Shown one piece after another: positions 2,055 through 29,859 of a DNA stretch of 64,000 bases. The stretch's first letter is position 1. Every line of letters starts with the position of its first letter. The stretch comes from a virus. Both the position numbers and the translations under genes were made by a program. The stretch is from the IMG/VR virus record IMGVR_UViG_3300030688_000015; one strand, written 5' to 3'. The notes beneath the pieces were generated by a model that ran no database searches, was not told the origin of the DNA, and worked only from the letters and a program-made list of their open reading frames with translations.

Positions 2055-3716
2055 ATGAAAACTTTTTCGCTAGGAAATATAAACCAACTGTATTCTGAAG
2101 TTGCACCATGGATAATGGAGAATGGTTTTGAAAAATCTGGAACTAAATCTGGAGGTTTAGTTTGTATAGAATTTACTAATCCCCAAAATAAATGGAGTCT
2201 TTCAGCTACTCGTAAAGCCAATCCTTTTGTACAAATATTTGAATATGTTTGGGTTATGGCAGGTTGCATCAACACAGATCTCTTAAAAAGGTATATACCT
2301 TCCGCTGATAATTTTGCTGATGAAATTGAAGGTGAAATGGTATGGAGAGCTGGTTATGGTAAAAGATTATTCAGTTATTCAGGTATAGATTCATTTGGAA
2401 ATGAAGTTAGAGATTTAGACCAGATACAAGCTATTATTCAAAGAATAAATAAAGATCCTTACACTAGAAGGGCTTGTGCTTCAATTTGGGACTCAGCTAA
2501 AGATTTAACTATAGAAAAAACTAAGGATACAGCTTGTAATAACTTCTTAGATTTCAAATACAGAAATGGGAAATTAGATTTAACTTTATTTGTAAGAAGT
2601 AATGACTGTTTCACTGGAGACACTAAAGTAAAGTTACTTTCTGGAAAATCAAAAACTTTAGAAGAATTAGAAAAAAATTATGAAAATGAGTATGTTTATT
2701 CTTGTAAAGAAAATGGAGAGATAATACCAGGAAAAATAAATAAAGTTTGGAAAACAAAAAAAGTTACTAAGTTAGTAAAAATAACTTTAGACAATGGAGA
2801 AACAATAAAATGTACTCCTGAACATAAGTTTATGCTTAGAGATGGCTCTTACTTAGAAGCCAAAAATTTAAATGAAACTATAAGTCTGATGCCTTTGTAT
2901 TCTGAAAGAAATAAAGATAACAGAATGACTTTTATTGATAATAAAACTGGTACTAGAAAAAAAACCTATACAATGGCAGCAAATTACTACAAAAATAATC
3001 ATTCAGAAGCTAAAGAAAGAATTGGAATCGAAGGTAATGAATATGTTATTATCCACCATCAAGATTTTGACAAAACTAACGATAATCCAGACAATCTAAT
3101 TTATATGGGAAATAATGACCATAAAATAATAAAAATTGAAGAGTTAGAGGTAGATCCTACTTGGGTTTATGATATAGAAATTAAAAATGAGGATAAAACT
3201 CATAACTTTGCTTTAGACTCTGGAATTTTTGTACACAACTGCATTTGGGGATTTTCTAATGCCAACATAGTTCTTTTTACTTCTTTATTAGAAATGGTGG
3301 CTAAGGAAACTAATTTACCTATTGGAAATTTTAATTATCTTGGTAATGATTTACATATTTATGAAAGACATTATTCAAAAATAAATTCTATGTCTTCTGA
3401 TGTTAGAAACTTAGAAGATTATCAGGATTCTTTTATTGAATATCCTTCTTATGGTGAGATTAGATCTTTATGTAAGAAAATAATGATTTTAGAAAGTTTT
3501 TTAAACAAAAAAAGTGAAGAAAGCCATGTAGAAGCTTTAGAAAATTTCTTAATTTGTAATTTATCTAGTTCGAATAAAAATTTCTTAGCTTATGCTCTAC
3601 TCCCTACATTTTGGAAGAGAGAATACTTAAATAGTATTTATCAGAAGAATTTTAAGAAAAGTTACCTTAAGTTACCTTTTACCTTACAACAATCTATAGA
3701 AATATTTGGGAAATAA
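2055..3716 (+). CDS. Thymidylate synthase (ThyA)-family enzyme interrupted by an intein (211 aa) carrying an HNH endonuclease domain
   Basis: ThyA fold motifs are DPYTRRA.ASIWD, ACNNF (catalytic Cys, PCH-like), and KLDLTLFVRSND followed, after the intein, by CIWGFSNANIVLFTSLL (equivalent to RSCD-VFLGLPFNIASYALL). The uracil-specifying Asn is retained. Extein total about 342 aa. Confidence 0.75.
   Translation: MKTFSLGNINQLYSEVAPWIMENGFEKSGTKSGGLVCIEFTNPQNKWSLSATRKANPFVQIFEYVWVMAGCINTDLLKRYIPSADNFADEIEGEMVWRAGYGKRLFSYSGIDSFGNEVRDLDQIQAIIQRINKDPYTRRACASIWDSAKDLTIEKTKDTACNNFLDFKYRNGKLDLTLFVRSNDCFTGDTKVKLLSGKSKTLEELEKNYENEYVYSCKENGEIIPGKINKVWKTKKVTKLVKITLDNGETIKCTPEHKFMLRDGSYLEAKNLNETISLMPLYSERNKDNRMTFIDNKTGTRKKTYTMAANYYKNNHSEAKERIGIEGNEYVIIHHQDFDKTNDNPDNLIYMGNNDHKIIKIEELEVDPTWVYDIEIKNEDKTHNFALDSGIFVHNCIWGFSNANIVLFTSLLEMVAKETNLPIGNFNYLGNDLHIYERHYSKINSMSSDVRNLEDYQDSFIEYPSYGEIRSLCKKIMILESFLNKKSEESHVEALENFLICNLSSSNKNFLAYALLPTFWKREYLNSIYQKNFKKSYLKLPFTLQQSIEIFGK
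2607..3239 (+). other. Intein (Hint domain with internal HNH homing-endonuclease module) inside the ThyA-family gene
   Basis: Starts with Cys immediately after RSND (CFTGDTKV... block A). Ends ...GIFVHN followed by the +1 Cys (CIWGF). Internal HHQDFDKTNDNPDNLIYMGNNDH is an HNH motif. Confidence 0.75.
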
Positions 3717-3717
3717 T

Positions 3718-6477
3718 ATGAAAATTTTAGCATGTTCTGATGTACATATTTTTGACTACAAGCAGAATGCCACATATGACTTGGATAATATTCCTAACCG
3801 ATTGAAACTTTATGAATCTTTAGCAATTGATATTATTCAATATGCAAAATATAATAACGTGGATGTTATTGTAGTAGCTGGAGATATTTCCCATTTTCCA
3901 GTAGTAAAACCTATGGTATTAAATTACTTAAGGAAATTCTTAACAATATTATCTTCTGAAAAAAATATTGATTTACTTTTAATACTCGGTCAGCATGATA
4001 TAAGCACAAAAAACAATACAGTTAATGCTGTTCATTCTGTTATAACTTCTATACTACCGGAGCAGGAAAATATTTTTTACTTTCCGGATAGTGGTTTTTA
4101 TGAATCTAAAGGTATAAAATTTTACTGTGAATCTTGGAAACCTGAACCTTCTTTTAAAGATAAAAGTGCAGATGTTTTTATAGGTCATGGTGGAGTTTTA
4201 GACTGTTTAGACTTAAGAGGAAATTTAATCAGACATGGTTTTGAAAAAAATGATCTTTTTTCAAGATATAAACTTTCCATAATAGGGGATATTCACAATT
4301 CCTCATATTTTGAACAGGAAAAAAAATTAATTCTACAACCTGGTAACTTACATTGTAACAACTATAATGACCAACCAGAATGTGGTTTTTGGACAATAGA
4401 AATAGATTCTACTGGTTTTCCAAAAAATCATAAATTTATTAATATTCACAACTTACCTCATAAAGATGAATATTATAAGTTTGTTATCTGCGATAAACCA
4501 GTAGAATCTAGTAATAAAAATCATTTTTTTACTGTAAAGAAAGTTAAAGAAAAGATTGAAACAAAGAATAAAATAGCTTATTCTAATGCTAACTTAAATG
4601 TATATGAAATGGCTTTGAATGAATTAGAGAAGCTTAAATTAAAAGACATAGAAATAGCAAAAGATATGATTTACAAATATCTTAAAAACTATATTGTAAG
4701 TTTCAAAAGCTGTTTTAAATCTAGCAAAGTTTTAAAAATAAAGGTTAGTGGTTTTATATCAATAAAAGAGTTAGAAATATCTTTTGAAGATTTAGGAAGT
4801 AACATACTAATTACAGGGATTAATGGTTCTGGGAAAACAACTCTATTGGAAGCTTTACTTTGGGGAATTACGGGAGAAGTAACAACTGACCTTCTAATAG
4901 GGGATTTAGTAAATGAAGATTATGAAACAGCTTCTGTAGAGGTTTTCTTAGAAATAGAAGGAGAACCTTATTATATTTATAGATCTACTGGTAAAAGCTC
5001 TGATTTAATCTCTAATAAAGGTTTTTCTGCTAATTTAGATACTGGCAGAGAAAATTCTAAAAGTGCAGGAAACAAAAAAATATTAGAGTATCTAGGTATT
5101 GAAAAAGAAGATATAAAAAAATATTGTTATTATTACACAAACAATTTAACATCTTTTTCAAAATTATCAGCTCCTAAGAAAGCTGAAGAAATCCTTAGAT
5201 TTTTAAATAAAGATGATCTACAGGAAATAAGAGACACCATTGATTCAGATTTAAAAGAATTAAATTTTAAAATAAAAGAATATAGCTCTAAAGTTTCTGA
5301 GCTAGAGTATAATTCTGTACGTAATAAAGACTCTATTAGGAAGTTTCAAAATTCTATTGGTTTAGATATTCCTGAAGTTCTTTCCAAAGTAAATAATATT
5401 ATTGGGAAAAATTTTGAAAATATTTTAGATCTTCAAGTTTGGTTAGAAAATCAAAGCTCAGAGTTAAATAAAAAAGATTCTGTTATTAAACAAATTAAAA
5501 GCTTAAATTCTGAAAAAACTAGAATGGAAAAAAGCCTTACTAGAAGTAAGAAAAATTTAGAAGAATTGCATTCTGAAATAAAAGAAAAAATTTCAGATTT
5601 ACAAAGAGTAGAAGAATCAGAAGTTTGTCCTACTTGTAATCGTGAGGGTTTTTCAGATATAATAGGTATTCAAAAATTAAAAAACACTATAGATTCTAAA
5701 AAAGACCAATTCAATAAATTAAAAGTTGAACACTCTTGCTTATTGAAGGAATTTTCTGAAATAAATAAAGATATTCAAATACAGGAGTTAAATTCTTCTA
5801 CAATAAATCCTAATATTGATCTTGAAACCCACGGAGTTATAATTTCTCTTTTGAATAATTGTGGAGTAGAAAATACTGATATTACTAGAGGAAAAATAGC
5901 TGTTCTGGAAGAGCAAAACCAGCAAATACAACTGGAAATTTCCCACTTAAATACTTTGCTTTTAGATGAAGAGAAAGTATTTGAGAGTTTAAAAGCTATA
6001 CATAAATTATTATCTAAAGATGGTATTGTGACTAAGCAAGTTTTAAAAACTTCAATTACAATGATAAATCAGGAACTAGAAAAGATATTAGTAAAAATAC
6101 CAGATATAGAAAGAATAGAGCTTTCCAAAGATTTAGAAATATTAATCAAATACAAGAATCAAAAAACTTTAAGAAAAATAGCAGCCTGTAGTATAGGTCA
6201 GAAGAGATTTATAGACTTAATTTTCTTAATAGTTTTTAGTAATATAGCTATTATCATAAATGGTTTAGAAGATATACCTTTAGGTTGTATAGCTTTAGAT
6301 GAAATATTTACATTCTTGGATGAAGATAAACTAGATGCTGGTTTTGATGTTTTAGAATGTAGTTTGTCTAAAAAAAGAATTGTTATAACTCACGAACCTA
6401 GAATCCAGAGTTACTTTGATACTACAATACAAGTTAGTAATAGTAAAGAAACTGGATCTGTTTATCAGGTGATTTAA
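3718..6477 (+). CDS. Single-chain Mre11/SbcD nuclease - Rad50/SbcC ATPase fusion (T4 gp47+gp46 equivalent)
   Basis: N-terminal calcineurin-like phosphoesterase motifs (ILACSDVHI, VVAGDISH, LILGQHD, GHGG, GDIHN). Downstream are Walker A (ITGINGSGKTTLLEAL), a long coiled coil with a CPTC zinc hook, ABC signature (CSIGQKRF), Walker B (IALDEIFTFLDED) and H-loop (ITHEP), all in one 920-aa frame. The ATG at 3718 directly follows the ThyA stop. Confidence 0.75.
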   Translation: MKILACSDVHIFDYKQNATYDLDNIPNRLKLYESLAIDIIQYAKYNNVDVIVVAGDISHFPVVKPMVLNYLRKFLTILSSEKNIDLLLILGQHDISTKNNTVNAVHSVITSILPEQENIFYFPDSGFYESKGIKFYCESWKPEPSFKDKSADVFIGHGGVLDCLDLRGNLIRHGFEKNDLFSRYKLSIIGDIHNSSYFEQEKKLILQPGNLHCNNYNDQPECGFWTIEIDSTGFPKNHKFINIHNLPHKDEYYKFVICDKPVESSNKNHFFTVKKVKEKIETKNKIAYSNANLNVYEMALNELEKLKLKDIEIAKDMIYKYLKNYIVSFKSCFKSSKVLKIKVSGFISIKELEISFEDLGSNILITGINGSGKTTLLEALLWGITGEVTTDLLIGDLVNEDYETASVEVFLEIEGEPYYIYRSTGKSSDLISNKGFSANLDTGRENSKSAGNKKILEYLGIEKEDIKKYCYYYTNNLTSFSKLSAPKKAEEILRFLNKDDLQEIRDTIDSDLKELNFKIKEYSSKVSELEYNSVRNKDSIRKFQNSIGLDIPEVLSKVNNIIGKNFENILDLQVWLENQSSELNKKDSVIKQIKSLNSEKTRMEKSLTRSKKNLEELHSEIKEKISDLQRVEESEVCPTCNREGFSDIIGIQKLKNTIDSKKDQFNKLKVEHSCLLKEFSEINKDIQIQELNSSTINPNIDLETHGVIISLLNNCGVENTDITRGKIAVLEEQNQQIQLEISHLNTLLLDEEKVFESLKAIHKLLSKDGIVTKQVLKTSITMINQELEKILVKIPDIERIELSKDLEILIKYKNQKTLRKIAACSIGQKRFIDLIFLIVFSNIAIIINGLEDIPLGCIALDEIFTFLDEDKLDAGFDVLECSLSKKRIVITHEPRIQSYFDTTIQVSNSKETGSVYQVI

Positions 6478-10557: not shown

Positions 10558-10590
10558 AGAACTCATTTTACAAATGAGTTCTTTTATTTA
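10558..10590 (+). terminator. Rho-independent terminator after the SSB gene
   Basis: Perfect 9-bp stem AGAACTCAT/ATGAGTTCT with 7-nt loop followed by TTTTATTTA. The track's ATG at 10574 lies inside the stem. Confidence 0.6.
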
Positions 10591-10609
10591 CAGTTTAGGA
10601 AGTAAAATA

Positions 10610-12814
10610 ATGATTAAAAAAATTAAAAAATCTGATGGCAGATTAGAAGACTTTGATCCTAATAAGCTCAACAAATGGGCTGAGTGGGCAGCTTTATATA
10701 AGAGAATAAGTTGGAGTAATATCACTTTGAAAGCTTATAGAGCTTGTTATGATAAGTGTTCAACTACAGATTTACATAAAGCTTTAATTACAGCTTGTAT
10801 AGAAGAGCAAGATGAAGACCATTTAAAAATGGCTGGAAGATTATTCATTAGTTCAATATACAAAGAGGTATATGGTGGCATAGATAAAATACCTTCTTTG
10901 ATTGACTTTTATAAGAAAATGGTAAAGCTAGATTTTTGGGTAAAAATGGACTACTCAGAAGAAGAACTTCATGCTATTGGGAAAATAATAGATCACAGTA
11001 AGGATATGACATACACTTATTCAGAATTAAAAGCTCTTAGAGATAAGAATATGATAGTGGATAAAACTGTAGATAAATGTTATGAGTCTCCTCAAATGAT
11101 GTACATTGGAGTTTCAATGGCTATCATGGAAAAAATGCCCAAGGAAAGAAGGATTAATGATATAATAGAATACTACAAACTTCTATCAGACAAAAAGTTA
11201 AATGCTCCAACTCCTTTTCTTTGTAATGCACGTACTAAGCACAGAGATTATGCCAGCTGTAACTTATACTCCACATTAGATACCTCACAGTCTTTAGCTG
11301 TTGGAGACCACATAGCATATTTAATGACCTGTGCTTCAGCTGGAATAGGTGCTCACTTAAAAACAAGATCCAAAGGGGATAAAGTAAGAAAAGGAACTAT
11401 TGAGCATCTAGGGAAAATTCCTTATTACAGATGCATAGAGTCTGCTGTCAGAGCTAATAAACAAAGCTCGAGAGGTGGCAGTGCTACAGTATATTATAAT
11501 GTTCTAGACCCAGAAGTTATGAGTTTATTAATGTTAAAGAGTATTGTTACTCCAGTTCAAGAGCAAGTAAGAGGATTAGACTATTCTTTCGGGTATAATA
11601 AAACTTTTGCTAGAAAAGTAGCGTTTAATGAAGATTGGATGCTTGTTTCTTATAAAGATGCTCCAGAATTACATGAGGCATTGTATTCAGATGATTTGCA
11701 AAATTTTGAAAAACTTTATGAAGAAGTTTTAAATAATAAAAATATTAAAAAAACTATTATTAAAGCAAGAGATATAGTTAAATTACAATTAGTTCAATCT
11801 TACGAAACTGGCAGAATATATTTACATGAAACTTATGAAATGAACCATCATACTCCTTTCAAAGAAAAAATCTACATGTCAAATTTATGTGTGGAGATTT
11901 GCCAACCCACTAAAGGTTTTAAAAATATGCAAGAGCTTTATTCTTCAGAATATGTAGAAGGGGAGATTAGTGTGTGTTCTCTCTCTGCAATAGTAGCAGG
12001 TAGAGTTAAACCAGAAGAGTACTACAATGTAGCTTATTATACTTTATTAGGCATAGATAATGTTATAGAATTAATGAACTATCCTTTTCCTAATCTTGAA
12101 ACTACTGCTAAAGCTAGAAGAAACGTAGGAGTAGGAATTACTAATTTAGCTTATGATTTAGCTAAAAGAGGTTTAACTTATAATTCAATTGAAGGTAAAA
12201 ACTACATTCATCAGCTAGCAGAGCTTCATAGCTATTCTTTAACTAAAGCTAGTTTGCAATTAGCTAAAGAAAGAGGAGTTTGTGATTGGATGCATAAAAC
12301 TAAGTATCCACAAGGTTGGTTACCTATTGATACATATAACAAAAATGTGGATAAAGTTCATACTCAAGAGTTATTATGTGATTGGGAATCTTTAAGAAAA
12401 GAAATAATAGAGAACGGAGGGATCCGTAATTCTGTATTAGAAGCTAATATGCCATGTGAATCATGTAATAAGTTTGATAATAAAATACAAACTGTAGACT
12501 ATGGTAACATTGATTTTCATGAAATTTGCGAAATTAATGGTATAGATTATAAAAAATTAGAATCTGAAGATACTCAAAAGTGGTTGGATTTAAAAAATCC
12601 TTTAAAAGTCTACACTAAAGAAGGAATTTTAGAGGCTGATAAACTGTACTACAATGGTAATTGTGAAGTTTTTGAAATAGAATTCGAAGATGGAAACATT
12701 TATTCTTTTACAGGGAATCATAAACTTTTAATCTCCATAGAAAATGAGGAAAAGTGGGTAAAAGTTTCTGAACTAACTGGTGATGAAGAGATACTTTGCT
12801 TAAATCATGAATAA
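10610..12814 (+). CDS. nrdA: Ribonucleotide reductase class I alpha subunit, N-terminal fragment fused to a split-intein N-part (IntN)
   Basis: ATP-cone (MIKKIKKSDGRLEDFD) and active-site NLCVEICQP (equivalent to E. coli NLCLEI). The frame follows NrdA up to ...RNSVLEANMPCES, then a Hint N-domain, then stop. The ATG at 10610 has an AGGAAG RBS. Confidence 0.8.
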   Translation: MIKKIKKSDGRLEDFDPNKLNKWAEWAALYKRISWSNITLKAYRACYDKCSTTDLHKALITACIEEQDEDHLKMAGRLFISSIYKEVYGGIDKIPSLIDFYKKMVKLDFWVKMDYSEEELHAIGKIIDHSKDMTYTYSELKALRDKNMIVDKTVDKCYESPQMMYIGVSMAIMEKMPKERRINDIIEYYKLLSDKKLNAPTPFLCNARTKHRDYASCNLYSTLDTSQSLAVGDHIAYLMTCASAGIGAHLKTRSKGDKVRKGTIEHLGKIPYYRCIESAVRANKQSSRGGSATVYYNVLDPEVMSLLMLKSIVTPVQEQVRGLDYSFGYNKTFARKVAFNEDWMLVSYKDAPELHEALYSDDLQNFEKLYEEVLNNKNIKKTIIKARDIVKLQLVQSYETGRIYLHETYEMNHHTPFKEKIYMSNLCVEICQPTKGFKNMQELYSSEYVEGEISVCSLSAIVAGRVKPEEYYNVAYYTLLGIDNVIELMNYPFPNLETTAKARRNVGVGITNLAYDLAKRGLTYNSIEGKNYIHQLAELHSYSLTKASLQLAKERGVCDWMHKTKYPQGWLPIDTYNKNVDKVHTQELLCDWESLRKEIIENGGIRNSVLEANMPCESCNKFDNKIQTVDYGNIDFHEICEINGIDYKKLESEDTQKWLDLKNPLKVYTKEGILEADKLYYNGNCEVFEIEFEDGNIYSFTGNHKLLISIENEEKWVKVSELTGDEEILCLNHE
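12464..12811 (+). other. IntN half of a naturally split intein (116 aa)
   Basis: CNKFDNKIQTVDYGNIDF (block A), GNCEVFEIEFEDGNIYSFTGNHKLL (block B TxxH), ...VSELTGDEEILCLNHE then a stop. Length and motifs parallel the DnaE split-intein N halves. Confidence 0.75.
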
Positions 12815-12863
12815 AAAAATTATAAAACAAATTTATAAAGAAATAAAAAAATTAGAAATAAGT

Positions 12864-12902
12864 GATTTAGAGGATTCTTTCTTTTTAGATTTTTCCTCTA
12901 AA
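12864..12902 (+). other. Perfect 10-bp stem-loop in the 147-bp spacer between the two nrdA halves
   Basis: ATTTAGAGGA ... 19 nt ... TCCTCTAAAT. Could be a terminator/attenuator or processing site. Confidence 0.4.
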
Positions 12903-12961
12903 TTAAATATAACTTTTTCTTCTCAAATAAATTTAAAAGTTAAATTAAAAGGCTGTAATTA

Positions 12962-13066
12962 ATGAAAATTAATAAAATAATAAAAAAAGATGCTGTACCT
13001 ACCTATGATATAAATGTTCCAGAGGTACATCATTATTTGATGGGAAATGGTATAATAAGCCATAAT
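12962..13066 (+). other. IntC half of split intein
   Basis: 35 aa with its own ATG and AAAGG RBS. Ends HN followed by Ser. Very close to the Npu DnaE IntC pattern (VYDIGVERDHNFALKNGFIASN vs TYDINVPEVHHYLMGNGIISHN). Confidence 0.75.
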
Positions 13067-13456
13067 TCTTCTGTAAATTCTAACACTACTAATGGTTTAT
13101 ATCCAGTTAGAGGAATTAAAATTTTAAAAGGTTCAGATAAAAACAAAACACTTTTCATTGCTCCTGAATCTGATAAACTAAAGTCTAATTACCAATTGGC
13201 TTGGGATTTAACTACTTTAGAAATGATTGATGTTTATTCTATAGTGCAGAAATTTACAGGACAATCCATATCTGCTGATTTTTACATTGATTATAATAAA
13301 TTACCTAATGGTAAAATTGATGACACTCAATTAGTTAAAGAATTTTTATACATGACTAAAATGGGAATGAAAACTAGGTATTACATTAACTCCAGAACAG
13401 ATGATGATACAGAACTTGAAAACGATGGTTGTGAAGGTGGAGTTTGCTCATTATGA
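12962..13456 (+). CDS. nrdA: Split-intein C-part (IntC, 35 aa) fused to the C-terminal fragment of RNR alpha subunit
   Basis: MKINKIIKKDAVPTYDINVPEVHHYLMGNGIISHN then S+1. The extein resumes SSVNSNTTNGLYPVRG, aligning with E. coli NrdA SETSSQISNATNGIEPPRG. C-terminal tail DDGCEGGVCSL is the NrdA CxxC thiol pair. Confidence 0.8.
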   Translation: MKINKIIKKDAVPTYDINVPEVHHYLMGNGIISHNSSVNSNTTNGLYPVRGIKILKGSDKNKTLFIAPESDKLKSNYQLAWDLTTLEMIDVYSIVQKFTGQSISADFYIDYNKLPNGKIDDTQLVKEFLYMTKMGMKTRYYINSRTDDDTELENDGCEGGVCSL

Positions 13457-14544
13457 CAGTATTTAATATAAACAACAATGCTTATAAAGACAAGAAATAT
13501 CCTTTATTTTTAGGTCAAGTTCCAGGTATTTATGATTCTATAAACGTAAATTATTCTAAGTTTTATGATCTTTTTGAGAAATTAAAATCTATTGATTGGA
13601 CTCATAATGAAATTAATTTATCTGGTAGCAGACTAGACCTTTTACACTGTTCTGAAAGTACCAAGCAAATTATGTTAAAGAATTTAGCCTTCCAATGGGA
13701 GTTAGATTCTATAGCCAGTAGAAGTATAGCTCCTTTATTGGCACCATTTGTTACTAATAGTGAACTTTGGTTACTTATTTCCAAGATAAGTGAAAATGAA
13801 AATCTGCATGCTTTAACCTATTCAGAGATTGTAAGACAATGTGTTCCGAATGTTGAAGATATTTTTAAAGAGATGATGCAAAATGAAAAGATTTTAAATC
13901 GAGGTACTAAAGTTTTAAATACTTTTGACAATCTTCAAAAAATAGGTGCAGAGTACACTTTAGGAATATTAAACACTGAAAGTGATTATAAGTACATGAT
14001 GAAGGCAATCTTCTTATTTTATGTGGCTTTATATTCAATGGAGCGTATTCAATTCATGGCTAGTTTTGCTTGTACTTTTGCACTAGCAGAACAAGGTTTA
14101 TTCTTAGGTATGTCAAAATATGTTCAGAAAATCATGAAAGATGAATTAACTGTACATGCAGAACATGATAAAAATGTTTTAAAAATACTTATGGATACCG
14201 TAGAAGATCACAACTTTTGGATGGATGAGTCTAAACAAATAATAGATGAAATAGTTAATACAGAACTCGCTTGGAATACTTATATATTTTCTGAGGATAG
14301 ATCAATAGTTGGACTAAACAAGGAGCTTTTAGATGAATGGGTTTTATACAATGCTAAAGAGGTTTATAAAACTTTAAAAATAAAATCTGATTTCAAATTT
14401 CCTAATTCTACTCCTTTAGTTTGGTTCACTAATAATTGGTTAGATTTAAATAAAGTTCAGAATGCGAATCAGGAAACTGACTCTACTAACTATAAGCTTT
14501 CATCTACTATATCCACTTTAGGTGATGATATTTTAGACTTTTAA
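13453..14544 (+). CDS. nrdB: Ribonucleotide reductase class I beta subunit
   Basis: Ferritin-like di-iron ligand context ERIQFMASFACTFALAEQGLF...HAEHD (ExxH). ATGA overlap with the nrdA stop. The track start 13444 is TTG. Confidence 0.7.
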   Translation: MTVFNINNNAYKDKKYPLFLGQVPGIYDSINVNYSKFYDLFEKLKSIDWTHNEINLSGSRLDLLHCSESTKQIMLKNLAFQWELDSIASRSIAPLLAPFVTNSELWLLISKISENENLHALTYSEIVRQCVPNVEDIFKEMMQNEKILNRGTKVLNTFDNLQKIGAEYTLGILNTESDYKYMMKAIFLFYVALYSMERIQFMASFACTFALAEQGLFLGMSKYVQKIMKDELTVHAEHDKNVLKILMDTVEDHNFWMDESKQIIDEIVNTELAWNTYIFSEDRSIVGLNKELLDEWVLYNAKEVYKTLKIKSDFKFPNSTPLVWFTNNWLDLNKVQNANQETDSTNYKLSSTISTLGDDILDF

Positions 14545-18059: not shown

Positions 18060-19124
18060 TTGAATATTTATAAAGTAGGAGGAGTTTGCAGAGATGAACT
18101 TCTTGGAAAGAAACCAAAAGATATTGATTACCTTGTACTCGGAAGTAATGAAAAAGATCTACTAGATCTAGGATATAAGAAAGTGGGTAAATTTTTCGCA
18201 ACTTATCTTGATCCTAAAAACAATAATCAGTACTCTTTGCCTAGAATTGAAAATATAAAAGAAGATCTTTCAGAATTAGAAATACTGAAAGAAGATTTAG
18301 CCCGTAGAGACTTAACTATTAACTCCATGGCGGAAAATTCAGATGGGAAAATTTTTGATTTCTTTGGAGGGATTCAAGATTTACAAAATAGAGTTTTGAG
18401 GCACACTTCCACTGAGCACTTTAAATCTGACCCAATCAGGATTCTCAGAATAGCTAGATTTATGTCTGTGCTGAATAATTTTTCCATAGCAGAAGAAACT
18501 TTAGATTTAGTTAGAAAATTAGTTAATGAGAATTTTCTTGAAAGTTTAGAACCTGATAGAGTTCGTAATGAGTTTAATTTAGCTTTTAAATCTTCTAACC
18601 CTTATAGGTTTATTCATACTCTACACCTATTTGGAGCTTTGAGTTGGATATGTAAGTTTTTTGATTTCAAGCAGGTTATAGATAGAAACTTGGAATTATC
18701 TTTTAGTTTGCTTCTAAATACAGAAAAGGATTATGATTCCAGAATATTAATGTCTTCTATATTAGCCACTTCTTTAGGTATTGATTTATATTTAGATAAA
18801 CTTTTAATAGGCAATGATCTATATTCTAGTATTCAAGCATTTAAAAAGCTATATAACTTAAGGATACCTATTTATCAGAGTATATTCTCTAAAGACTGTG
18901 AGAAACTCCTTAGCAAAATTTTAAAGTTTGATAGTATATCCAGAATAGAATTTTATATAAGAGAATCTAAGATCATGGGTAACGAAGCTAGATGGAAAGA
19001 AATTTTACAATACTTAATTACCTTGAAAAATCTTATGTCTGAAGTTTCTAATCAGGATTTTTCTGAAATGAATGTTGAAGAAATAAGACTAAAAAAATTG
19101 GAAATAGCAAATAAATATTTTTAG
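18060..19124 (+). CDS. tRNA nucleotidyltransferase (CCA-adding)/polyA polymerase family head-domain protein
   Basis: YKVGGVCRDELLGKKPKDIDYLV equals the GGxVRDxLLGxxxxDxD motif of class II CCA enzymes. Also RRDLTINSMA. TTG start after AGGAGG. Confidence 0.55.
   Translation: MNIYKVGGVCRDELLGKKPKDIDYLVLGSNEKDLLDLGYKKVGKFFATYLDPKNNNQYSLPRIENIKEDLSELEILKEDLARRDLTINSMAENSDGKIFDFFGGIQDLQNRVLRHTSTEHFKSDPIRILRIARFMSVLNNFSIAEETLDLVRKLVNENFLESLEPDRVRNEFNLAFKSSNPYRFIHTLHLFGALSWICKFFDFKQVIDRNLELSFSLLLNTEKDYDSRILMSSILATSLGIDLYLDKLLIGNDLYSSIQAFKKLYNLRIPIYQSIFSKDCEKLLSKILKFDSISRIEFYIRESKIMGNEARWKEILQYLITLKNLMSEVSNQDFSEMNVEEIRLKKLEIANKYF

Positions 19125-22540: not shown

Positions 22541-24895
<2,355 letters not shown>

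Positions 24896-28215: not shown

Positions 28216-29859
<1,644 letters not shown>

Follow-up and report, generated by a model that had tools for sequence, protein, structure and literature searches.

Phage genes cut by split inteins were described by Dassa et al. (2009, PMC2677866) as fractured genes, comprising NrdA-1 to -7, NrdJ-1/-2, gp41-1 to -8, and IMPDH-1. At these loci, an essential gene of nucleotide or DNA metabolism is divided into adjacent open reading frames (ORFs) on the same strand, with an N-terminal intein half (IntN) of about 100–120 aa, a C-terminal half (IntC) of about 35–40 aa, and a hairpin together with a free-standing homing-endonuclease gene in the region between them. 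In Aeromonas phage Aeh1, nrdA is split by the mobile endonuclease gene mobE without an intein; the two ORFs lie in one operon, a hairpin regulates the endonuclease, and the halves, which remain separate, assemble through short tails (PMC3045599). Intein-interrupted nrdA genes were also noted in Campylobacter phages by Dwivedi et al. (2013), who did not call them split inteins. Here we analyzed a stretch of 64,000 nt (the window; IMG/VR record IMGVR_UViG_3300030688_000015) from an uncultured, AT-rich phage (28% GC), in which nrdA, encoding the large subunit of a class Ia ribonucleotide reductase (RNR), is present as two ORFs carrying an IntN and an IntC. Sequence comparison and structure modeling make it highly probable that the two form a naturally split mini-intein that ligates NrdA by trans-splicing. 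No near-identical cultured phage was found in INPHARED, where the best nrdA match reached 63–67% nucleotide identity.

The locus resembles the fractured genes of Dassa et al. in its adjacent same-strand ORFs, the sizes of its intein halves, and the hairpin between them. The endonuclease ORF typical of those genes is missing between the window halves, which are separated by 147 nt with a 51-codon orphan ORF, as the endonuclease gene is missing from gp41-7 (PMC2677866); an endonuclease-family ORF is found instead in a sister allele of the window, on contig L028. The NrdA inteins of Dassa et al. immediately precede the thiyl-radical Cys (E. coli C439), whereas that of the window is located about 185 residues downstream, at the equivalent of E. 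coli T624/S625 (a slash between residues marks an insertion point). Since the NLCVEI motif is uninterrupted in the window and the insertion site is a different one, membership in the NrdA-1 to -7 group, including NrdA-2, was rejected. The intein lineage is different as well, the NrdJ-1 structure (8ubs) being only remotely similar in fold (E 7.8e-6, 20% identity) and absent from the profile matches. The split DnaE inteins of Ssp and Npu share with the window intein the canonical split site, Cys1, TxxH, His-Asn, an acidic IntN, and a basic IntC N-terminus, but they reside in dnaE, their halves are far apart, and their +1 residue is Cys, whereas the window halves lie 147 nt apart in one apparent operon and are followed by Ser+1. 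The complete IntN and IntC set the window apart from the intein-free Aeh1 arrangement. In the searchable literature, no paper describing split inteins at the T624/S625 site was found, which is absence of evidence only.

Two nrdA ORFs and the intein halves they carry

The first nrdA ORF (10574..12814, + strand) is NrdA-like up to ...RNSVLEANMPCES, continues with CNKFDNKIQTVDYG...SFTGNHKLL...EEILCLNHE, and ends with a TAA stop at 12812-12814. The second ORF (12962..13456, +) begins with MKINKIIKKDAVPTYDINVPEVHHYLMGNGIISHN, resumes NrdA at SSVNSNTTNGLYPVRG, and has the C-terminal end CEGGVC. In Pfam searches, Ribonuc_red_lgN and positions 1-395 of the 523 positions of Ribonuc_red_lgC fell on the first ORF, and positions 456-523 of the latter on the second. 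The 618-aa N-extein (10610..12463, +) consists of a weak ATP-cone, the all-alpha domain, and the barrel domain up to the MPCES loop, and contains NLCVEI, with the equivalents of E. coli N437/C439/E441. It is followed by the 116-aa IntN with its stop (12464..12814, +; Cys1...T83-G-N-H86...LNHE), the 147-nt spacer (12815..12961, +), and the 35-aa IntC (12962..13066, +), which has a Lys-rich start, T-Y-D in block F, and S-H-N in block G ending at Asn35. The 129-aa C-extein with its stop (13067..13456, +) starts with Ser+1, carries the Tyr-Tyr radical-transfer pair and a C-terminal CxxxxC, and matches PHROG 84 (E 1e-34). The small-subunit gene nrdB (13453..14544, +; Pfam Ribonuc_red_sm, E 3e-28; 363-aa gene calls on public contigs) overlaps the end of the nrdA C half.

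The true start of nrdA is likely ATG 10610, because a TAGGAAG Shine-Dalgarno sequence precedes it and 734-aa gene calls on public contigs begin there. The ATG at 10574 has no Shine-Dalgarno sequence and lies within a terminator-like hairpin (10558-10582) that ends the upstream gene. The ATG of IntC is preceded at 9 nt by a Shine-Dalgarno-like AAAAGG (12947..12952, +), and other genes of the phage have AAAGG/AAGGA motifs at comparable distances from their starts, so that the C half appears to have translation signals of its own. The layout proposed in the original prediction from the letters alone, with a stop at 12812, a 147-nt spacer, and a new ATG with its own ribosome-binding site, was recovered both on the ORFs and on independent contigs.

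When IntN and IntC were fused in silico, the resulting 151-aa mini-intein aligned end to end with contiguous relatives at 33–48% identity; these relatives are 150–155 aa long, indicating that nothing is missing from the pair and that its halves have canonical split sizes. In an alignment of 20 family members, the columns C1, N64, N85, H86, W98, T130, D132, G146, H150, and N151 are invariant, and T83 is conserved in at least 90%. The class-1 splicing residues are complete, with the block A Cys1 directly after MPCES, the block B TxxH motif (T83-G-N-H86), the block F Asp, the block G His-Asn, and Ser as the +1 residue of the C-extein, which starts with SSVNSN. The same alignment upheld the predicted 116-aa IntN with blocks A and B and the predicted 35-aa IntC followed by Ser+1. 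The split point is located in a variable loop between blocks B and F (alignment columns ~116-124), the sole length-variable loop of the family.

Comparison of the family profile with solved inteins gave matches to Mxe GyrA (E 1.2e-9), Pho RadA (1.2e-8), and Ssp DnaB (3e-8), and, among split inteins, to Npu DnaE (5e-8), gp41-1 (1e-7), and the 36-aa Npu IntC chain (6.8e-3). On the window pieces, the profile matched IntN with E 1e-41 and IntC with E 1.7e-12, the latter at profile positions 117-151. AlphaFold2 modeled the fused intein, together with 15 relatives, with a pLDDT of 97.4 and a pTM of 0.90, confident across the junction, and the model places the split in a turn before the long IntC strand. 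In a Foldseek search of the model against the PDB, the 50 best matches were all inteins or related bacterial intein-like (BIL) HINT domains, and the TM scores of all top matches except one domain-swapped entry were 0.64–0.82. The Hint-domain assignment made earlier was borne out by these profile and fold matches. The match to Npu DnaE is one of fold (TM 0.75–0.80) at about 20% sequence identity, and the earlier claim that IntC is close to the Npu DnaE IntC did not hold up: as a single sequence it matched DnaE-intein chains with E values of 0.045–1.4, its best match being Pho RadA (E 0.018). IntN has a net charge of -14 (last 30 aa, -5) and the Lys-rich first 12 aa of IntC a charge of +3, in agreement with the pairing by charge that has been described for other split inteins (PMC2677866). 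Sequence and model together support the presence of every sequence-level feature required of a naturally split class-1 intein in nrdA, and with it the original interpretation of the locus.

Analysis of the exteins indicated that splicing would restore a complete NrdA, since the nearest intein-less relatives (L001 and L002; C-extein identity to the window 58% and 50%) read ...SVLEAHMPCESSSV(G/A)G.. over the junction, i.e., MPCES/SSV. The ligated product would have 618 + 129 = 747 aa from ATG 10610, or 759 aa from 10574, rather than the ~630 aa originally predicted. In an alignment with E. coli R1 (E 3e-136), residues 5-746 of this product pair with 7-760 and the junction is free of gaps; the C-extein, correctly recognized in the original prediction as the resumption of NrdA, aligns to residues 625-760. 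The insertion point corresponds to E. coli T624/S625 in MPSETSS, a conserved barrel loop (MPxE(T/S)S) that presumably contacts the substrate phosphates. The thiyl-radical Cys and its partners lie in the N half, and the Tyr-Tyr pair for radical transfer and the redox cysteines of the C-terminus lie in the C half. As the catalytic residues are shared out over both halves, both would be needed, and activity should require ligation or at least tight assembly.

Proposed trans-splicing and its alternatives

In the proposed mechanism, the two nrdA pieces are probably co-transcribed with nrdB on one strand and translated separately. The acidic IntN and the IntC with its Lys-rich N-terminus would associate and fold into one HINT domain, upon which Cys1 would undergo an N-S acyl shift and Ser+1 would attack the thioester (transesterification). 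Cyclization of Asn35 of IntC and an O-N shift would leave a peptide bond between Ser618 and Ser619, giving the 747-aa NrdA with the predicted junction peptide ...NMPCESSSVNSNTTNGLYPVR. The association of the halves, the splicing chemistry, and the co-transcription, as well as the direction of endonuclease gain or loss considered below, are steps that we infer.

Several points weigh against this reading. Co-transcription is only an assumption, made because no terminator-like site was found between the two nrdA ORFs in the scan. In the searchable literature, no splicing experiment was found for the window intein or for any family member at the T624/S625 site. Single-sequence similarity to inteins is weak, with the Pfam Intein_splicing profile matching the tail of the first ORF at profile positions 17-93 (E 1.7e-4) and the head of the second at 123-155 (E 0.019), both below the gathering score. 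The sister contig L028 spans just 1.5 kb and breaks off within its endonuclease-family ORF, short of the 3' end, so that it shows neither the right junction nor the nuclease domain of that ORF, and it could in principle be chimeric.

The split itself is reproducible. Five contigs (L020-L024, from three JGI and two ENA samples) matched the window with 0 mismatches over all bases compared, and the N half, the spacer ORF of 51 aa, and the C half occur as exact proteins on 14–29 public contigs. The stop, the spacer, and IntC are also retained in L027, a strain variant of about 1% divergence. Comparison of L027 with the window revealed 23 nt but 3 aa differences in the N-extein, 3 nt differences with one conservative aa change (I to V) in IntN, and 0 differences in IntC. 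These strain differences are consistent with purifying selection, the changes being too few to prove it for the intein itself.

Among the alternatives to trans-splicing, the one that survives best, though we consider it improbable, is that the NrdA fragments assemble non-covalently without splicing, the intein halves being mere interaction tags like the mobE-derived tails of Aeh1. A functional NrdA made from genes in pieces and held by tails has precedent (PMC3045599, PMC2677866), and splicing of the window intein is something that we infer. However, Aeh1 has short tails that are no inteins, whereas in the window all splicing residues are kept, and they are invariant in a family that includes contiguous members which must splice in cis. 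Moreover, an unspliced HINT domain of 151 aa would occupy the conserved MPxE(T/S)S barrel loop.

Marginally less probable still is that the intein or the interrupted nrdA is a decaying pseudogene and no longer functional, as suggested for some Campylobacter phage genes. Dwivedi et al. (2013) argue that the intein-interrupted nrdA of Campylobacter phages may be degenerating, and in Campylobacter phage CP21 (L026) the C half after IntC is broken into the overlapping ORFs 4427..4639 and 4623..4928 (70 and 101 aa), which suggests decay or a frameshift there. The C half of the window, by contrast, is intact. Each extein of the window is full-length and can be aligned with E. coli R1 over its whole extent. 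NrdA keeps its catalytic Cys, Asn, Glu, and Tyr-Tyr as well as its C-terminal Cys residues, and the intein has lost none of its catalytic residues. The overlapping nrdB is intact, and the strain substitutions in the N-extein listed above are overwhelmingly synonymous.

The weakest alternative is that the intein is really contiguous, with a stop and spacer that either stem from an error of sequencing or assembly or are skipped at the level of the RNA or the ribosome. It can point to two ORFs in the same frame (offset 2388 nt) and a stop-to-ATG interval of 150 nt, a multiple of 3, but it is effectively refuted: the identical DNA of five independent contigs from five samples and the divergent strain reject an artefact, a concern raised with the original prediction; six in-frame stops between the ORFs (manual count on the sequence) exclude readthrough and, with no intron or other Rfam family matched in the spacer in an Rfam search, reject frameshifting and RNA splicing over it; of 150 representatives of the family, 119 stop where the window IntN does; and IntC comes with a Shine-Dalgarno sequence and an ATG of its own.

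The spacer and a probable allele with an endonuclease-family ORF

The spacer is filled exactly by a 51-codon orphan ORF (12807..12962, +), publicly called as a hypothetical protein, whose ATG overlaps the IntN stop and whose stop overlaps the IntC ATG. This ORF is probably non-functional. It has no homologue among 5.8 billion proteins, no match at E<=10 to any ORF of related loci, a chance-level PHROG match only (E 0.027), and no Shine-Dalgarno sequence. In L027 (5205..5351), six A residues stand for the seven of the window after the IntN stop (window 12813), which cuts the ORF to MNKKL followed by a stop, the rest of the spacer being unchanged. At the spacer composition, 51 stop-free codons have a chance of about 0.002 per frame; because a stop-free length of this kind is unlikely by chance despite the contrary evidence, we leave the coding status of the ORF as doubtful.

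The spacer also contains a predicted RNA hairpin (12863..12905, +) with a 12-bp stem including one G·U pair (12863-12874/12894-12905), a dG of -16.1 kcal/mol, and a z of -3.6; 0 of 200 shuffled sequences folded as well, and the hairpin is identical in L027 and L028. A stem-loop at this place, described as a perfect 10-bp stem at 12864..12902, had been predicted and does exist. Its role as an intrinsic terminator was rejected, because no U-tract follows and it was not called in the terminator scan. Hairpins were reported in 15 of 16 endonuclease 5' UTRs (Dassa et al. 2009, PMC2677866), and that of the window is possibly the leftover regulatory hairpin of an endonuclease leader.

Comparison with contig L028 (446..1511; ENA ERZ19028352, from the same project as L027) revealed that IntN and the spacer are identical up to window position 12951, the spacer being common base for base over 12815-12951. 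Past this position, the sequence of L028 departs from that of the window and enters an ORF of at least 285 aa, ended by the contig end, with the breakpoint (12951/12952) falling inside the Shine-Dalgarno-like AAAAGG motif. The L028 ORF is homologous to the inter-half nrdA ORFs of Klebsiella phage phiKp_21 (E 2e-10) and Campylobacter phage CP21 (E 8e-7). Its database homologues P0162 and P0160 lie between RNR halves carrying the same split-intein family (L029-L031), and the C-terminal regions of these homologues, judged by eye from translations, are Vsr-like in L029 and HNH-like in L031. The earlier statement that no endonuclease ORF sits between the halves is correct for the window, but not that the stem-loop is all that lies there, given the 51-codon ORF across the spacer and the endonuclease-family ORF in the L028 variant.

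Because L028 shares the spacer and then runs into an endonuclease-family ORF, the window looks like the allele of a fractured gene that is free of the endonuclease, with a spacer that corresponds to the first 137 nt of an endonuclease leader, hairpin included. A deletion that removed the endonuclease seems more parsimonious than its gain. A tentative extension, which we regard as possible but stop short of favoring, is that the phage population is polymorphic for a homing-endonuclease gene inside the split-intein gap, with the window, L020-L024, and L027 free of it and L028 occupied. If so, the 147-nt spacer would be an empty or vacated homing site, and the locus would offer a natural system in which to follow directly the cycle of invasion and loss proposed to create and maintain split inteins. 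A junction pattern for a complete endonuclease-bearing allele had 0 matches in JGI metagenome contigs, and the endonuclease-family ORF of L028 had 0 matches in IMG/VR.

The intein family and other features of the window

To survey the family, we searched 1.84 billion cluster representatives exhaustively with IntN using phmmer, which yielded relatives in 279 clusters at E<=1e-3 and in 101 at E<=1e-10. A word-indexed search with the fused intein returned 2 matches only, so that the exhaustive HMMER search was required; further family loci were retrieved with a degenerate FTGNHKLL DNA pattern. Of the 150 best relatives, 119 terminate no more than 12 residues away from the IntN end and were counted as split for that reason. 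The other 31 continue past IntN, and at least 17 of them are contiguous mini-inteins of 143–158 aa, mostly 150–155 aa.

Sorting by N-extein motif placed the family in one loop of several RNR types. At the window site of NrdA (MPxES/C), 13 members are split and 2 continue past IntN, and one residue upstream (MPxE/C) the numbers are 6 and 2. Motifs of the APTA/APNA/APTG type are the most numerous (41 split, 13 continuing), the remainder being KPSG/C, which is NrdJ-like (18 and 3), MPTA(S)/C (13 and 2), and APN/C (8 and 1). By these searches, the intein family is large, mostly split, and RNR-specific.

The distance between IntN and IntC is 96–147 nt in loci without an endonuclease gene (the window and L018), 0.7–1.4 kb in the other fetched split loci, and zero in the contiguous L036 and L044. 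Endonuclease-type ORFs were seen between the halves in five of the fetched split loci, a count that leaves out the inter-half ORFs of L014-16, L039, and L042. They comprise a GIY-YIG ORF in L019b (Pfam), an endonuclease-VII/HNH-like ORF in phiKp_21 (L025; PHROG), the HNH-like and Vsr-like ORFs of L031 and L029 assigned by eye, and an untyped homologue in CP21. In L019 (16..4017), an NrdJ is interrupted by a pair of split inteins, and each of the two is accompanied by a separate endonuclease gene.

The same intein family reaches cultured phages, including Klebsiella phages phiKp_21 and KP13-7, Campylobacter phages CP21, CP220, CPt10, and NCTC12673, and others. IntN identity to the window in cultured phages is 31–47%, with 47% in phiKp_21 and KP13-7, and about 20 Campylobacter phage records were found. 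These phages share with the window the nrdA loop, the split, and an IntC ending in ...NG(I/V)(I/V)SHN followed by Ser or Thr. In the two loci inspected, phiKp_21 and CP21, a 272–323-aa endonuclease-type ORF lies between the halves, unlike in the window, and in phiKp_21 the insertion is one residue upstream (MPGE/TSSQ). GenBank labels the pieces in cultured phages as nrdA plus hypothetical proteins, or as 'intein'. The family uses two NrdA insertion points one residue apart, MPGE/C..HN/TSSQ in phiKp_21 and MPCES/C..HN/SSV in the window, with Thr or Ser as the +1 residue, an offset that echoes the one noted between NrdA and NrdJ by Dassa et al. (PMC2677866).

Contiguous mini-inteins of 151–155 aa with all blocks conserved were found at the window site, MP(C/V)ES/C...HN/SSV, in P0015 (45% identity to the window intein), L036, and L044. 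They differ from the window intein, which is cut, in being single polypeptides for splicing in cis. The NrdA of L044 (- strand; strand-oriented nt 12140..13402) has, besides its contiguous intein at MPCES/C, another intein at the thiyl-radical site (SNL/CVTGDTL...VHN/CQE).

The kind of element described here is well known and the family is abundant in public data, and the understanding of inteins or RNRs is unchanged by it. What the window adds is a second class I RNR site at which a natural split intein is well supported. The arrangement reported in 2009 as fractured genes from few ocean reads appears, by the present searches, as a large, mostly split, RNR-specific family that extends to cultured Klebsiella and Campylobacter phages. 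With endonuclease-free and endonuclease-bearing alleles side by side in phages that are close relatives, and with contiguous mini-inteins at the site as well, this one family appears to display all three states of the proposed pathway of split-intein origin. The compact 116/35-aa pair, with Cys1, Ser+1, a native -1 Ser, and about 20% identity to DnaE, gp41-1, and NrdJ-1, is a candidate orthogonal trans-splicing tool.

At the N-terminal splice junction of the window (12449..12466), the N-extein Cys-3 and the intein Cys1 form a C-x-x-C motif (C-E-S-C) like that of intein redox traps, engineered or natural (e.g., PDB 3nzm). A disulfide between the two might act as a redox trap gating trans-splicing of an aerobic RNR, a reading that is weaker than that of the endonuclease polymorphism. 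Cys-3 was counted by eye in about 6-7 of the 15 representatives at the window site, which gave no support for an enrichment among intein-bearing hosts or for a redox trap beyond the motif itself. The motif may be coincidental, because the intein-less L001 and L002 also carry Cys-3.

A second intein is found in a gene of deoxynucleotide synthesis of the same phage. The thymidylate-synthase-like gene (2055..3716, +; 553 aa) contains a contiguous intein of about 215 aa, FVRSND/CFTGDTKV...SGIFVHN/CIWGF, which matches Pfam Intein_splicing with E 1.6e-17. An apparent HNH-like motif, IHHQDFDKTNDNPDNLIYMGNNDH, was recognized by eye in the insert of this intein, without a tool match.

No tRNA and no Rfam family was found in the 64-kb window, over which the GC content ranges from 24 to 35%. 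Other genes on the + strand include a single 923-aa fusion resembling SbcD(Mre11) and SbcC(Rad50) (3706..6477) and a CCA-adding/poly(A) polymerase-like enzyme (18060..19124). The - strand encodes an NAD-dependent DNA ligase (22541..24586), a GroEL-type chaperonin (28216..29850), and an RtcB RNA ligase (32539..33729).

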